A stretch of DNA of 64,000 nucleotides. Origin: Chthonomonas calidirosea (GTDB lineage: Bacteria > Armatimonadota > Fimbriimonadia > Fimbriimonadales > Fimbriimonadaceae). Below, piece after piece: positions 1 through 3,862 of this stretch; the first letter of the stretch is position 1, and every line of letters starts with the position of its first letter. The stretch is taken from positions 109,627-173,626 of the forward strand of contig CAMAPH010000002.1 of the NCBI GenBank assembly GCA_945859975.1, read 5' to 3'. The notes under the pieces were generated by a model that was given only the letters and a program-made list of their open reading frames with translations, had not been told where the DNA came from and did not search any database. The translations under genes were made by a program, and so were the position numbers.

Positions 1-2
1 AT

Positions 3-455
3 CAGCCTGAAAAGGTCTATCAGTACCCGGCAAACAAGTTCGTTGCGGGCTTTATCGGCTCTCCTCCGATGAACTTCATCGATGCTGAGATTCGCATGGA
101 GAACGGTGTCGCGATTGTTGACGCCGGGGAGTTCAAGCTTCCGGTGCCAGATGGCAATCCTGCAGCTCACATGAGCGGCAAAAAGATCACCCTCGGCATT
201 CGCGCTGAAGACATTCACGACGCTGCCATTCCAAGCAACGTGGTTGCGACCGATGCGAATAGCGTCCAGGCAACCGTTGACGTAATGGAACCACTCGGCC
301 ACGAGTACGTTGCTTATCTGAAGATCGGCAAGATCAACCTAGTTGCTGCCATCAGCAACGAGAGTAAGGTCCGCGTCACCGAAGTCGCCAAGTTCGTGGT
401 CAACCTTGACCGCGTACACCTCTTCGATGCCGAGACCGAACAGGCAATCCGCTAA
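3..455 (+). CDS. Sugar ABC transporter ATP-binding subunit (MalK/UgpC family), C-terminal part; 5' end lies outside the window
   Basis: YQYPANKFVAGFIGSPPMNF, LGIRAEDI, EPLG and HLFDAETE are typical of the MalK C-terminal TOBE region. Confidence 0.9.
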   Translation, partial: QPEKVYQYPANKFVAGFIGSPPMNFIDAEIRMENGVAIVDAGEFKLPVPDGNPAAHMSGKKITLGIRAEDIHDAAIPSNVVATDANSVQATVDVMEPLGHEYVAYLKIGKINLVAAISNESKVRVTEVAKFVVNLDRVHLFDAETEQAIR

Positions 456-469
456 GAAACCTGAATCCT

Positions 470-508
470 AAAAGCGCGAGGTGAACCTAGGTTCCCTCGC
501 GCTTTTTT
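470..508. terminator. Bidirectional intrinsic terminator
   Basis: AAAAGCGCGAGG-T-GAAC-ctag-GTTC-CCTCGCGCTTTTTT, with an A-tract on the left and a T-tract on the right, between convergent genes. Confidence 0.85.
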
Positions 509-521
509 GCGTCTTCTGTTT

Positions 522-716
522 CCCCTAAGGGCGACGACGGGACTGACCGCGGGAAGAGTCTTGATGTTTAAGGTTTGAGGATTGAAGTCACGAACTTTGA
601 GTTTTGAGGCCATAGGCCGCTTGATCAGGTTCAATGATTCTTGTCAAGAATCAGCCAGGATTCGATGTTGATCGAAGGTGCTAAGTCAGTCGTATTCCGT
701 CAATCGCCCTTAGAGG
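522..716 (-). ncRNA. Putative structured 3' RNA with heptamer repeats downstream of the DIP1984-like gene
   Basis: Long-range helix pairing 522-547 with 685-716 (13+6+7 bp). Two pairs are G-U on the minus strand but A-C mismatches on the plus strand. Internal hairpins at 661-676, 635-653 and 608-618, and a repeat tract at 553-609. Confidence 0.65.
553..609 (-). repeat. Degenerate 7-nt tandem repeat (consensus nnUCAA(A)), about 8 units
   Basis: Minus strand reads CCTCAAA ACTCAAA GTTCGTG A CTTCAAT CCTCAAA CCTTAAA CATCAAG ACTCTTC. Confidence 0.75.
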
Positions 717-737
717 CGGCTTCATTCTATCGGTTTT

Positions 738-1187
738 TCACTCGGAAAACTCAATGGAAACGGTGGCGTTGTGCTCGTCCAGACGATCCTGAAGTTCGTC
801 GATCTCCGCTTCAAGCCGCGATACTTCTTCTTCGACTTCGCGGGCGGAAAGGGTCGCGATGTACTCCTGCGGTTCCTGCATTCCGTACGGTTGCATGAAC
901 TTTCCCGACGTGGTCGGAATCCTCCGCAAGAAGCTGATGTGACTCTTCAGTTCCCCGATGCGATAGATCGTCTCCTGAATCGGAGCATTGGCGAGGCTAA
1001 TTGCCGCTTTCAATTTCACGAGCGCCTCAGTTGCATTTCGGAGTTCAGCGAGACTTGCCGCCACATCAAACTCTTCCCTGCCGCCAACGAGGCGCGAATT
1101 GTGAGCGGTCACGATGCCCTGAAGCTTTTGAATCTTCGCCACTTGGCGATTCTTGAGCTTCAGGGCTTTCGCGAGCGAGATTGCCAT
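738..1187 (-). CDS. Small all-helical coiled-coil protein, DIP1984-like (149 aa)
   Basis: N-terminal MAISLAKALKLKNR and C-terminal LEAEIDELQDRLDEHNATVSI resemble DIP1984-like proteins. The ATG overlaps the upstream stop (TAATG at 1185-1189). Confidence 0.75.
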   Translation of the reverse strand: MAISLAKALKLKNRQVAKIQKLQGIVTAHNSRLVGGREEFDVAASLAELRNATEALVKLKAAISLANAPIQETIYRIGELKSHISFLRRIPTTSGKFMQPYGMQEPQEYIATLSAREVEEEVSRLEAEIDELQDRLDEHNATVSIEFSE

Positions 1188-3718
1188 TACTGGACGGTAA
1201 CCCAGACCGATGTGCTCGCCGAACCGAACTGAACGGTTCCGCGGGTGAACTTCCAGCAGGACTGATAGAGGCCAACGGTGTTCGGCGCCGTGAGTCGAGC
1301 CTGAACCGTGATCGTTTGGCCAGGTGCAACGTTGCTTCCGGGCGGCATTCCGAGGCGGCTCTTGCCGAATGTGGTCGACCCCACGGGCATTGAGGTCAGC
1401 GCAAGGCGCTGCACATCCGCCGAGGTCCAGTTCTGCGTACCGGCGTTTCGGAACGTGAACGCGACCGTGAAGACTTGCCCCGGTGCGACCGTGTTCGGAA
1501 CCTGCTGGGAAACAAACGCGGCATCCCATTCGGTGTTGACCGACATTGGGACCGAAATCGTCGTGGTCGTTCCGTTACCGTTGGTAACCGTTAGCGTTGC
1601 GTAGAGTTTTGCGCTAGGCGTGATAGCGGCATGATTCAGCACGACTTCATTGCTGGTCGGAGCAATTTCGGTGTTCGCGACAACATCGCCTGCGCCAGCC
1701 GTTCGACCAATCTTGATCTGGTACTTCTCGATTCCCGTCTCGGTGTCGTATGCCCAGAGCTTGAATCGAGTCGCCGAGTAGGCGCCACCCGTCGGGACGC
1801 CTTCCCAGTTGGAAAAAGCAAATCGATCCACGATCGGCGCGGTGTCATCACCGGTGTAAGTTCCGCACCAGAAGTCCGTCGCCGGTGCATCGCTGCCCGA
1901 AATGACTTCGACGCGCCGGACCTTAGTCTTCCCAAAGGCCACCGCGGTTACGGTGTACATGCCCGGTGCCAGCTGGTCGTATCGGTACGTACCGTTAGCA
2001 AGCGTCGAGGTTTGGTAGGTGATCGTGCCACCGTCCTTCTTAGCGCGAACCGTAGCGTTGCCTTGTGCAGTGCCTTCGTTGTAGACGATTCCTTCGATTG
2101 CCCCGGCGGTAGCTCCTCGGGAGTCCGCATCCTGCAACAGATAGTAAGCATCAAGCGAGCCGTAACCCTGGTGGGTCTCCCAAGAGCCTTTCGGTGCGCC
2201 GTACACGCTCAGTGCCGACCGCTGCAAGGCTCGATAGGCCCGAAGGTTCTGCATGCCCTGAGCTCGATCCATATCGTTCTTGCCGTAGTACAAGCTTGCC
2301 GCGCCCGCGACGATCGGGCTCGCCATCGATGTTCCAATCAAGTAGCCGTAGCCAAGGTCATATCCTGGCGCCCCGACGTCCATGATCGGGTTATGGGTGG
2401 TCATCGTGGTGGAGTAGATGTACGCCAGCATCGCGATCGGGTCTTCGATGTTGCTGTAATCGAGGATGATGTTTCCTCCTGGTGCAGCGAGGTCGATGTA
2501 CGAACCGGTTCCCGCGTAGTAGTCCGAGGCATGGATGTAGCCGTAGCCGTTCGCGGTGACCGCGAAAGCGCCACTGCAAGCCGCAGGATAAATCGGCCCT
2601 AAGTCACCGCCACCGGCGCCGTCCTCGTTACAAGCCACCACGACGAGGACTCCCTTCTGCCAGGCGTAGGTCACCGCGTCCTGGAAGAGCTGCGAGAAGT
2701 TTTCCGTGCCAAGGCTAAGGTTGATGATGTCCACGCCATGATCGGTCGCGTAGAAAATCGCGCCCGCCGCATCGGCGTCTGAGCCGTTTCCGGTGTCATC
2801 GAAAACGCGGAGATTGATTCCCTTGCTTGGATAGCCGAGCCCGACGATTCCCTTTCCGTTCCAGTTTCCGTTGTTCCCAGAAGCAAGGGCAAGTCCGGTG
2901 ACGTGAGTGCCGTGCCCCATCGCATCTTCGGTGGATCCTTCTTGCAGAACTTCGCCAAAGCTGAACTGGGCGTCCAGGCTCAAATCGAACTGCCCGCCTT
3001 CTTCGATGCTGCTGTCAAATCCCCCGGCGTTGATGAAGTCCGGGTGTTGTCGCTCAACTCCGGTGTCGATGACCGCGATCATCGGCACGTTCTGTGGTTT
3101 GTCGGCGCTCGTAAACCATCGATTGGGCCAATCGTTCCAAGCATCGAAAGCGCTGGTCTCGTCGAGATACCAGAGCCGGCGATACGTGACGCCCTCTCCG
3201 AGCGGAATCATTGGCTCTCCGATTTCAATAACGTTCCAGTCCCCGTCATTGGGCTCTGGCAAGAGCGGATAAATTTTGTTGAGCGGCTGTGCCGCCACGA
3301 CGTTTGGTTTGCCCTTCAGGCTTGCCGCGACCGCCTTGGGATCCTCGCCCTTTCCGAGTTGCCATACCGTCCAGCCGGACCGCTGAATCCGGTTTCGAAA
3401 ATTCTCGGAGCGCAATCCGGTAGGCACAAAACGAGCGCGCGTCGCTTCGGTTTTCGTTAGCTCTGCCGCAACCTTGGTCGGAAACTTGACCAAAACGTAG
3501 CCAGGAACGATCTCGTTCTTGCGCTTCGCGGGAATGTTTCGCTTCAAGATGCTTCGCAAAACCAATCCCAGTGGTTTCGGTGCAAAAATAGAAACGGCCG
3601 GATTACCGATGACTCGGCTTCTCCGTCCTAGCGATTCGCTCACGGGACCAACGGTCTGGGCGGGAGCAACGGCAACCAGAAATAGGCTTGCAGCCAAACT
3701 CAAAACTCTAAAATTCAT
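1187..3718 (-). CDS. Secreted S8 (subtilisin-like) serine peptidase with carboxypeptidase-regulatory-like and Ig-like C-terminal domains
   Basis: Signal peptide; catalytic motifs IDTG, HGTHVTG and GTSMASP; beta-rich C-terminus. Confidence 0.9.
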   Translation of the reverse strand: MNFRVLSLAASLFLVAVAPAQTVGPVSESLGRRSRVIGNPAVSIFAPKPLGLVLRSILKRNIPAKRKNEIVPGYVLVKFPTKVAAELTKTEATRARFVPTGLRSENFRNRIQRSGWTVWQLGKGEDPKAVAASLKGKPNVVAAQPLNKIYPLLPEPNDGDWNVIEIGEPMIPLGEGVTYRRLWYLDETSAFDAWNDWPNRWFTSADKPQNVPMIAVIDTGVERQHPDFINAGGFDSSIEEGGQFDLSLDAQFSFGEVLQEGSTEDAMGHGTHVTGLALASGNNGNWNGKGIVGLGYPSKGINLRVFDDTGNGSDADAAGAIFYATDHGVDIINLSLGTENFSQLFQDAVTYAWQKGVLVVVACNEDGAGGGDLGPIYPAACSGAFAVTANGYGYIHASDYYAGTGSYIDLAAPGGNIILDYSNIEDPIAMLAYIYSTTMTTHNPIMDVGAPGYDLGYGYLIGTSMASPIVAGAASLYYGKNDMDRAQGMQNLRAYRALQRSALSVYGAPKGSWETHQGYGSLDAYYLLQDADSRGATAGAIEGIVYNEGTAQGNATVRAKKDGGTITYQTSTLANGTYRYDQLAPGMYTVTAVAFGKTKVRRVEVISGSDAPATDFWCGTYTGDDTAPIVDRFAFSNWEGVPTGGAYSATRFKLWAYDTETGIEKYQIKIGRTAGAGDVVANTEIAPTSNEVVLNHAAITPSAKLYATLTVTNGNGTTTTISVPMSVNTEWDAAFVSQQVPNTVAPGQVFTVAFTFRNAGTQNWTSADVQRLALTSMPVGSTTFGKSRLGMPPGSNVAPGQTITVQARLTAPNTVGLYQSCWKFTRGTVQFGSASTSVWVTVQ

Positions 3719-3862
3719 GGGCAGAACCAATCCTCAGAGAGAGTTTAACGGAAAAAAGTCAAAAGACCAACCATTCCTCCCCCAGAACGTTAGCCTTTTT
3801 AGACTTGGAATAGGAAGGCGTTGTTCCGTGGCAAGTAACCTGTTTGCAGGTCGGATTTGAGC

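Follow-up and report, generated by a model that had tools for sequence, protein, structure and literature searches.

The question raised by this locus is what connects a small gene with the element of complementary ends that lies directly behind it. Both are found in a 64,000-nucleotide (nt) stretch of Chthonomonas calidirosea DNA, referred to here as the window; the gene encodes a 149-amino-acid (aa) protein resembling the DIP1984/DUF6847 family, and the element follows on the same strand. A sequence-only reading of the window had proposed that the protein oligomerises on its own 3' RNA. The analysis described here shows that the element belongs to an uncatalogued, widespread RNA family with a dedicated protein gene. 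Gene and RNA probably form an undescribed RNA-protein particle, in which the protein would bind the RNA. Leaving the mechanism aside, the finding is real and not ordinary. The direct observations concern the structure of the RNA, its conservation, its linkage to the gene, its genomic context and its presence in RNA libraries. The parts of the locus on which the argument turns are the following.

738..1187, minus strand: 149-aa DIP1984/DUF6847-like gene, stop codon TGA at 740-738
717..737, minus strand: spacer of 21 nt between the gene stop and the RNA element
522..716, minus strand: the whole structured RNA element, 195 nt
685..716, minus strand: 5' arm of the closing helix P1 (13 bp, 1-nt bulge, 6 bp, 5-nt internal loop, 7 bp)
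522..547, minus strand: 3' arm of P1 (7 + 6 + 13 nt)
661..676, minus strand: variable-region hairpin A, 6-bp stem and 4-nt loop
635..653, minus strand: variable-region hairpin B, 9-bp arms 635-643 and 645-653
551..634, minus strand: conserved core with GAU motifs, the P2 hairpin and 7-nt units
608..618, minus strand: hairpin C, enclosed by P2, pairs of the minimum-free-energy (MFE) structure
553..607, minus strand: tract of 7-nt units with a UCAA/UUAA core, its 3' part 587-553 unpaired in the MFE structure

The ends of the element pair as had been claimed, over 13 + 6 + 7 = 26 bp that include two G-U pairs on the gene strand, and the outer 13 bp join 704-716 to 522-534. The short inner hairpins that had been predicted were also recovered (676-661, 653-635 and 618-608), and the positions given for the gene, the 21-nt spacer, the element of about 195 nt and a terminator at 470-508 proved right. 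Using RNAfold, an MFE of -68.3 kcal/mol was obtained, compared with -48.3 +/- 4.2 kcal/mol for dinucleotide shuffles (z -4.72), and none of 200 shuffles was as good. The closing helix P1 is present in both the MFE and the centroid structure, while P2 appears in the MFE structure as pairs of 632-629 with 595-592 and of 627-625 with 600-598. The element is single-copy in the 3.1-Mb genome, where the other BLAST matches were 14-29 nt long with E > 0.1, and a 98% identical copy is found in genome G014. Among the near-identical relatives L020 and L010/L017 and the window, the 3' arm of P1 is identical; of the two 5'-arm changes at window 704-709, one (A to G) keeps a G-U wobble and the other (G to A) gives an A-C mismatch.

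The element does not correspond to a catalogued RNA. A covariance-model comparison with Rfam 15, scored by E-value and covering window 1-3000 and 25 homolog loci, returned only tRNAs and chance matches and no family for the element. ARAGORN and the Rfam tRNA and tmRNA models identified it as neither a tRNA nor a tmRNA, in the window or at the other loci.

To follow the pair beyond the window, homologs with 32-99% protein identity were collected from six further genomes of the same genus, three GTDB records (two of them Bacteroidota-like), 80 metagenome contigs, 16 IMG/VR viral contigs (<=340 kb) and two huge uncultured phages. A covariance model of the core, R1, was built from sequence only (40 seeds, 85 positions) and run at E <= 0.01 over both strands of 100 loci, 362 kb in all. 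It was found that an R1 core lies beside the gene in 92 of the 100 homolog loci, always downstream and on the gene strand. The claim that gene and RNA form a conserved pair, in one order and on one strand, is thereby upheld. Matches were obtained in 53 of the 61 non-seed loci. The window match (40.8 bits, E 3e-11) is the sole one in the 64 kb and follows by construction, the window being a seed; only one match exists in its whole 3.1-Mb genome. The copies in G014, L020 and L010 are matched as well. The extra R1 matches consisted of four antisense echoes in AT-rich copies, one partial tract in L034 and one weak match in L068. A nucleotide profile of the core gave a similar picture, with 79 nhmmer matches, one per locus, all downstream on the gene strand; iteration dropped the matches from 73 to 68, and the first profile was kept.

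The spacing of the two partners is close. The RNA starts 2-72 nt past the gene stop in most loci, with L085 and L086 carrying an extra short open frame between gene and RNA, so that the element lies about 290 nt downstream of the gene. Reading by eye, nearly every locus with enough downstream DNA shares the same plan, with P1 differing in sequence. Among 41 related genomes, each of the seven that hold the protein (7/7) carries a near-full-length adjoining core match.

Such linkage can be read in another way, in which the RNA works by itself, as a decoy or sponge that captures some host factor (for example an RNA chaperone, a nuclease or a modification enzyme), and the protein is co-inherited or acts elsewhere. 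This reading is considered unlikely. It draws on an intact core that lies beside a decayed gene in genome G015 (L015; G015:C142:4394-4988). The gene there carries three TGA and one TAG codons in frame and is likely to be a pseudogene, whereas the core still scores 35.3 bits; the RNA may therefore work without the protein. It draws also on gene-less relatives that carry long tandem arrays of a matching 7-nt unit, so some other reader of the unit may exist, and on the precedent of phage RNAs that assemble without protein, GOLLD and ROOL, as presented in parts of PMC12286853. However, none of the 41 genomes searched has a full-length core away from the gene, and order, strand and close spacing are kept in 92 of the 100 loci through 32-99% protein identity. 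A joint function is favoured for this last reason.

Evidence that the conserved object is a folded RNA comes from covariation. RNAalifold run on a 56-sequence cross-clade MAFFT alignment gave no pairs, because the P1 arms cannot be aligned by sequence between clades, and clade-level alignments were used instead. A naive column-pair screen of the 56-sequence alignment was dropped, as conserved G and T/C columns dominated it, and arm finding with RNAduplex was replaced by an ungapped helix finder, as the helices were over-extended. The P1 arms are wholly different between clades yet complementary, and among the same-genus relatives they vary in sequence and are still complementary. In most copies the 3' end of P1 lies 25-37 nt past the core. 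The pairing of P1 and P2 within each clade was compared with controls in which the partner was slid.

Clade A: 18 sequences, 86.7% of cells paired, 32-44% with the partner slid
Clade B: 12 sequences, 86.1% of cells paired, 30-52% with the partner slid, 17 pairs changed on both sides
Clade C (AT-rich): 10 sequences, 87.3% of cells paired, 36-55% with the partner slid, 17 pairs changed on both sides

In clade A, 59 cells are changed on both sides, compared with 18-30 in the slid controls, and 9 of the 12 pairs in the second helix segment show such changes. None of 500 shuffles reached the observed covariation score in any of the three clades; kinship alone can lift sequences above shuffles, and it is the slid controls that carry the weight. 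The covariation of the closing helix, for which a check had been proposed, is thus seen in three clade alignments. P2 is supported in all three clades as well, its 5' strand running from a conserved GAU and its 3' strand being formed by the third 7-nt unit; compensatory pairs in clade B include, for example, CG in six sequences and UA in five.

The strand of the fold bears on a further reading, namely that the element acts at the level of DNA, as a mobile inverted repeat or a recombination or replication site, or is an RNA-inert heptanucleotide microsatellite. Terminal inverted repeats flank an AT-richer interior, as such an element would have, and same-genus genomes hold pure CTCAATC, CTCAAGG or CTCAAAG tandem arrays. 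However, the G-U pairs of P1 would be A-C on the other strand, and in 48 of 66 unique elements the ungapped helix score favours the sense over the antisense strand, with nine ties and nine cases of the reverse, which agrees with the earlier use of the G-U asymmetry as a sign of an RNA made from the gene strand. Moreover, compensatory changes keep the pairing, it is particular positions that are conserved from phylum to phylum, RNA libraries contain the element (see below), and its own genome has a single copy, unlike miniature inverted-repeat or repetitive extragenic elements. The DNA reading is thus largely refuted, and its probability is regarded as very close to nil.

The most distinctive part of the RNA is the core. 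The consensus of 77 unique sequences aligned to R1 contains three GAU motifs at 6-nt spacing, the third being GAg, followed by eight [U/G]-C-A-(A) units at 7-nt spacing with one 8-nt step, and ends with a closing CUCWU. In six of the eight units, conservation of the A that follows the C reaches 97-100%, and about 40 unpaired or loop positions are conserved across phyla, the near-invariant CAA cores among them. The periodicity that had been noticed in the window was examined across the family: in 70 unique cores, one CAA lies 7, 14, 21 and 28 nt from another in 104, 87, 54 and 29 cases, a strong excess over shuffles of the same cores, which gave about 2 per spacing and a maximum of 8-10. The earlier count of about eight heptamers holds for the family consensus; in the window copy there are seven YAA-centred units, of which four are in strict 7-nt phase (587-560) and two more are one base off. 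Because the units are degenerate, Tandem Repeats Finder reported nothing on the element. Units 1-2 lie inside P2, unit 3 in the P2 3' strand and units 4-8 between P2 and P1. Part of the repeat tract is folded into P2 rather than free, a point absent from the sequence-only reading. No covariation that would fold units 4-8 was found in the core alignment.

Related 7-nt units occur outside the pair. Loci L116-L121, from same-genus genomes, contain long intergenic tandem arrays just past stop codons, with up to about 60 copies of CTCAATC, CTCAAGG or CTCAAAG, which match the core consensus unit; the DIP1984-like gene was not found in these genomes with the window protein as query. In L116 (G017:C56:20899-21287) the array is preceded by its own complement, so a hairpin is possible. 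Genomes G003 and G004 have partial core matches too. A second partial run of units is present at L034:1268-1328 (R1 positions 20-81, 28.4 bits) on a 462-kb contig, where it precedes the gene by about 170 nt.

The protein offers few hints from databases. Both family profiles match over the full length, NF038048 (DIP1984_fam) with E 4e-8 and 33.5 bits against a cut-off of 70, and PF20935 (DUF6847) with E 1e-3 and 19.3 bits against a cut-off of 27; PF20935 is carried by 8 of the 24 homologs found. Since both scores fall below the curated cut-offs, the window protein is classed, on its sequence, as a divergent branch of the DIP1984/DUF6847 family. In a profile search of sequences clustered at 50% identity, 2146 clusters matched at E <= 1e-3 and 1582 at E <= 1e-10, and the best 150 clusters listed span 132-210 aa, mostly about 150. 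PHROGs contained no family for the protein. A literature search gave no function and no associated RNA for DIP1984, DUF6847 or 3KDQ, supplementary files being outside its scope, and among the papers listed for phage tRNA arrays together with structured or noncoding RNA, none described such an RNA.

AlphaFold2, run with 25 sequences, predicted a confident rod (pLDDT 94.5) with helices at 5-29, 42-89 and 115-142 and short strands at both termini and at 95-109. The only clear match of Foldseek in the PDB was 3kdq (E 2e-4, TM 0.70/0.69), followed by prefoldin and other coiled coils at E > 0.5. A homodimer model scored 0.69 in a complex test, compared with 0.00 for the best control; the mark of that test is reached by 20 of 30 solved pairs and by 1 of 23 single chains. 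All contacts (100%) recur between runs, with a partner pLDDT >= 88. Of the oligomerisation proposed earlier, the homodimer is the only form to which modelling lends support. The modelled interface is antiparallel along the long helix and contains the invariant residues N30, S31, L56, K60 and E79 and the near-invariant T92. Outside the modelled interface lie the invariant or near-invariant residues K7, K10, K12, N13, R14, N67, Q133, D134, D137 and N140. From the helix topology, these residues, among them the K/N/R cluster of K7-R14 and Q133-N140, would come together near the middle of the rod, in a patch proposed here as a candidate RNA site.

The fold and the unit length both bear on the analogy with type III toxin-antitoxin systems, in which a harmful protein would be kept inactive by the repeat RNA. 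In support, a repeat RNA does adjoin a small protein gene, and some family members have been automatically named 'putative septicolysin'. However, the models of defence and toxin proteins match only as coiled-coil noise (LmuB, E 0.004-0.02), beyond which PADLOC gave no match; the fold is a helical rod and not a nuclease; the RNA lies downstream; its units are 7 nt rather than about 36 nt and are degenerate rather than exact copies. In addition, the module is located inside tRNA arrays of very large phages, and no plasmid match was found for it. The analogy that had been drawn with these systems is therefore not supported, and an RNA-neutralised effector is regarded as highly improbable. Most of the features by which a toxin-antitoxin system or a DNA element would be defined are absent here.

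Also absent from the sequence-only reading is the setting of the family, which is carried mainly by phages and lies within tRNA arrays and islands of RNA-repair genes. In the ESM Atlas, the protein clusters closest to it have a viral share of 86-98%, and two huge uncultured phages of 462 and 595 kb carry both gene and core; tblastn with three family members found these two and no cultured phage. tRNA genes are present in the flanks of 37 of 96 loci (30 of 80 metagenome and 7 of 16 viral contigs), and all 167 flanking tRNAs are on the module strand. In 18 of 29 tRNA-bearing loci, with L040 counted by its Rfam tRNA match, the next tRNA starts 4-10 nt past the 3' end of P1. In this position it resembles a further stable RNA of the array. 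No tRNAs lie close to the window copy or to its same-genus relatives. The module is taken to be of phage origin, and these copies look like its chromosomal descendants, that of the window standing alone.

Pfam scans of 74 neighbouring open reading frames in 11 phage loci provided the wider context. The neighbours include RNA ligases of the Rnl1 and PHA02142 types, a cyclic-phosphate-processing Rec domain (cREC_REC), an AAA_33 kinase and calcineurin-like phosphoesterases (Metallophos) directly upstream, and further a CCA-adding enzyme, a fragment of a class I aminoacyl-tRNA synthetase, and Prok-JAB with ThiF. In one of the 11 loci, L102, a Ro60 homolog (TROVE and vWA domains) lies 1.1 kb downstream. 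This set is drawn from L104, L111-L114, L101, L110, L102, L100 and L123. Iyer and colleagues described such a gene set as the RNA-repair and tRNA-provision equipment of jumbo phages (parts of PMC7824862), and section 3.4.9 of that paper names neither a DIP1984-like protein nor an RNA of this kind. The variable region has features that resemble parts of a tRNA: a T-arm-like hairpin with a 5-bp stem and the loop UUCGAUU occurs in L100 (4583-4797), L103 (3851-4060), L051 and L089, and clade A loci such as L040 and L054 carry 5-bp hairpins with 7-nt loops of anticodon form (CUGAUAA, CUCCAAA, CUGCAAA).

The position of the RNA allows another explanation, that of a cis-acting 3' untranslated element. 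P1 would shield the 3' end of the small mRNA from exonucleases, which would matter when RNase P or RNase Z cut the flanking tRNAs; feedback control of the gene may be added, and there would be no separate trans-acting RNA. The RNA always lies directly 3' of the gene (at 2-72 nt from the stop codon for the most part), and in 18 of 29 array loci the following tRNA adjoins it. A scan of window 400-1400 showed no sigma-70-like promoter, nor does the window have a promoter-like site separating the RNA from the gene; gene and element are taken to be co-transcribed for this reason. However, a stabiliser needs only a helix, yet some 40 positions that are unpaired or in loops have been conserved from phylum to phylum. 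In the window, a separate terminator hairpin already follows the element, and the core has been kept beside the decayed gene in G015. A purely cis-acting role is therefore considered unlikely.

Presence in RNA libraries was looked for in metatranscriptomes, where small parts of a 1.3-kb query were matched in six runs, each from a different study, and four runs were compared in detail. In each of these four, from four studies, a single contig of 151-161 nt falls entirely within the bounds of the element (at 525-677, 538-677, 532-683 and 538-698) and differs from it at two positions. A check on RNA libraries, as had been proposed, thus finds the element in four studies as short contigs confined to it. 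Contigs over the flanking genes, the MalK-like gene (window 300-460) included, differ by 6-10%, compared with about 1% for the element contigs. This suggests that they come from lake strains related to that of the window, with the RNA more conserved than its flanks. The lack of cover over the gene body (740-1047) or the terminator carries no meaning in these contig data.

Taken together, the explanation favoured here, at slightly better than an even chance, is that of an uncatalogued stable RNA that is co-transcribed with the gene, excised and bound by protein dimers to give a ribonucleoprotein acting in the conflict between phage and host over tRNAs. Excision, protein binding, stoichiometry and role are the parts that we infer. 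A structured noncoding RNA would be transcribed together with the DIP1984/DUF6847-like gene just upstream. In the proposed architecture, P1 joins the ends, one to three variable hairpins follow, and P2 opens with the GAU repeats; [U/G]CAA units continue at 7 nt after P2, the last four or five of them presumably single-stranded. The RNA would then be cut out of the transcript, in tRNA arrays through the processing that frees the neighbouring tRNAs, its 3' end being set there when RNase P cuts the tRNA that follows. The excised RNA would be bound by dimers of the helical protein, which would read the periodic units, to form the particle. In phages, the module would work beside the tRNA genes and RNA-repair enzymes, so a conflict over tRNAs and translation is its likely field.

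A more specific role within this conflict can be sketched, and it is quite unlikely in the detail given here: the RNA as a decoy or a presentation platform. The spaced YUCAAR units resemble the 7-nt loops of tRNAs, either the T-loop UUCRANY or an anticodon loop of the form YU-CAA-RN, a likeness read from short motifs only. As a decoy, the arrayed units might soak up or mis-direct host defence enzymes that cut or bind tRNAs. As a platform, units arrayed by the dimers might bring damaged tRNAs together with the ligase, kinase and CCA-adding enzymes that the phage encodes nearby. If true, this would be a new kind of anti-defence ribonucleoprotein in phage tRNA arrays.

Several points weigh against the proposed particle. 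The success of the dimer model may reflect the earlier deposition of 3kdq, a like structure solved with four chains. Eight of the 100 loci lack an R1 match: L037 and L085 are cut by contig ends, and the others are three Bacteroidota-like loci and three divergent elements, six uncut misses in which the closing helix was recognised only by eye and with the helix finder. The intact core beside the decayed gene of L015 may also point to some independence of the RNA. All 40 shuffles were outscored by the ungapped P1 helix in no more than 36 of 66 elements, so that this score, taken alone, is a weak statistic; a mutual-information pseudoknot search found no Watson-Crick covariation within the sequence-only core alignment. 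The RNA-repair neighbours come from only 11 phage loci, with each type in one or two of them, and the window copy itself sits among ordinary chromosomal genes without a tRNA. Finally, the metatranscriptome contigs cannot show the ends, the strand or the abundance of the RNA, and DNA can occur in RNA libraries.

The nearest known systems resemble the pair only in part. The bacterial partners of Ro60 (Rsr), Y RNA and YrlA, are likewise stable noncoding RNAs closed by a 5'-3' stem and encoded beside their protein. Nearly all copies here have a closing stem; a T-arm-like hairpin, a possible counterpart of a tRNA-like module, occurs in only a few (L100, L103, L051, L089). To our knowledge, Y RNA has no counterpart of the periodic 7-nt units and GAU repeats. 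Unlike the TROVE ring of Ro60, the partner here is a helical rod; the element has no Rfam Y RNA match, and no TROVE-domain gene is found near it in the window. Ro60 and Y RNA occur in bacteria and phages and have been linked to RNA repair, as treated in sections of PMC7824862 and PMC4201824.

A comparison by genomic place can be made with RNAC and RNAD of phage T4, which are encoded in a tRNA gene cluster. We know of no partner protein for them. Parts of PMC9697503 describe both as small phage RNAs of unknown function. The likeness drawn here is one of place: the present RNA is encoded within arrays of tRNA genes of its own strand, directly against the tRNA that follows. GOLLD and ROOL also lie near tRNA genes. 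They are structured phage RNAs (as covered in portions of PMC12286853), 3-4 times larger than the present element, and assemble without protein; their Rfam models give no match here.

Evenly spaced short motifs on single-stranded RNA suggest an oligomeric reader, as in TRAP and HutP. These proteins recognise triplets at 5-7 nt spacing in leaders and their role is attenuation. Unlike their targets, the RNA described here lies 3' of the gene and is closed by a helix, and the folds, motifs and roles differ. In type III toxin-antitoxin systems, the gene of an endoribonuclease toxin is preceded by tandem RNA repeats of about 34-36 nt that are nearly identical. ToxIN thus shares with the present pair a protein gene beside a repeat RNA, whereas the order, unit length, processing and protein fold differ. 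The family of 3kdq, DIP1984/DUF6847, is related to the protein partner by the same fold (TM 0.70), the same length and weak full-length profile matches with scores below the cut-offs.

The remaining features of the window locus concern its immediate neighbours.

1187..3730, minus strand: S8 subtilase gene, 847 aa, upstream of the 149-aa gene
470..506, minus strand: terminator-like hairpin, arms 470-481 and 495-506, 12 bp, 100% complementary

T runs flank the 470..506 hairpin on both strands, and it is shared with a convergent MalK-like gene on the plus strand that ends at 455. A simple terminator scan did not call this hairpin because of its 13-nt loop. On the other side, the TAA of the S8 subtilase gene overlaps the ATG of the small gene as TAATG (window 1185-1189), an arrangement of the sequence that suggests translational coupling of the two. 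The subtilase contains CarboxypepD_reg and N_BRCA1_IG domains. It probably forms one operon with the 149-aa gene in the lineage of this genome only; the link was seen only in the two near-identical relatives L010/L017. The peptidase was considered as a part of the module and rejected, the link being local to this lineage. The other neighbours are ordinary chromosomal genes, encoding an EVE domain protein, an M32 carboxypeptidase, parts of methionine synthase and an FKBP, and no tRNA or tmRNA was detected in the 64-kb window.

The protein family concerned is large and mostly viral, with a crystal structure but no function, and its tie to a conserved structured RNA is the first concrete lead to the role of a DIP1984-like protein. 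The strict 7-nt spacing provides a simple, testable model of how a protein may read an RNA. The finding enlarges the small set of ribonucleoproteins known from bacteria and phages by a sizeable RNA class, and it bears on what phages bring, besides spare tRNAs and ligases, to protect translation.

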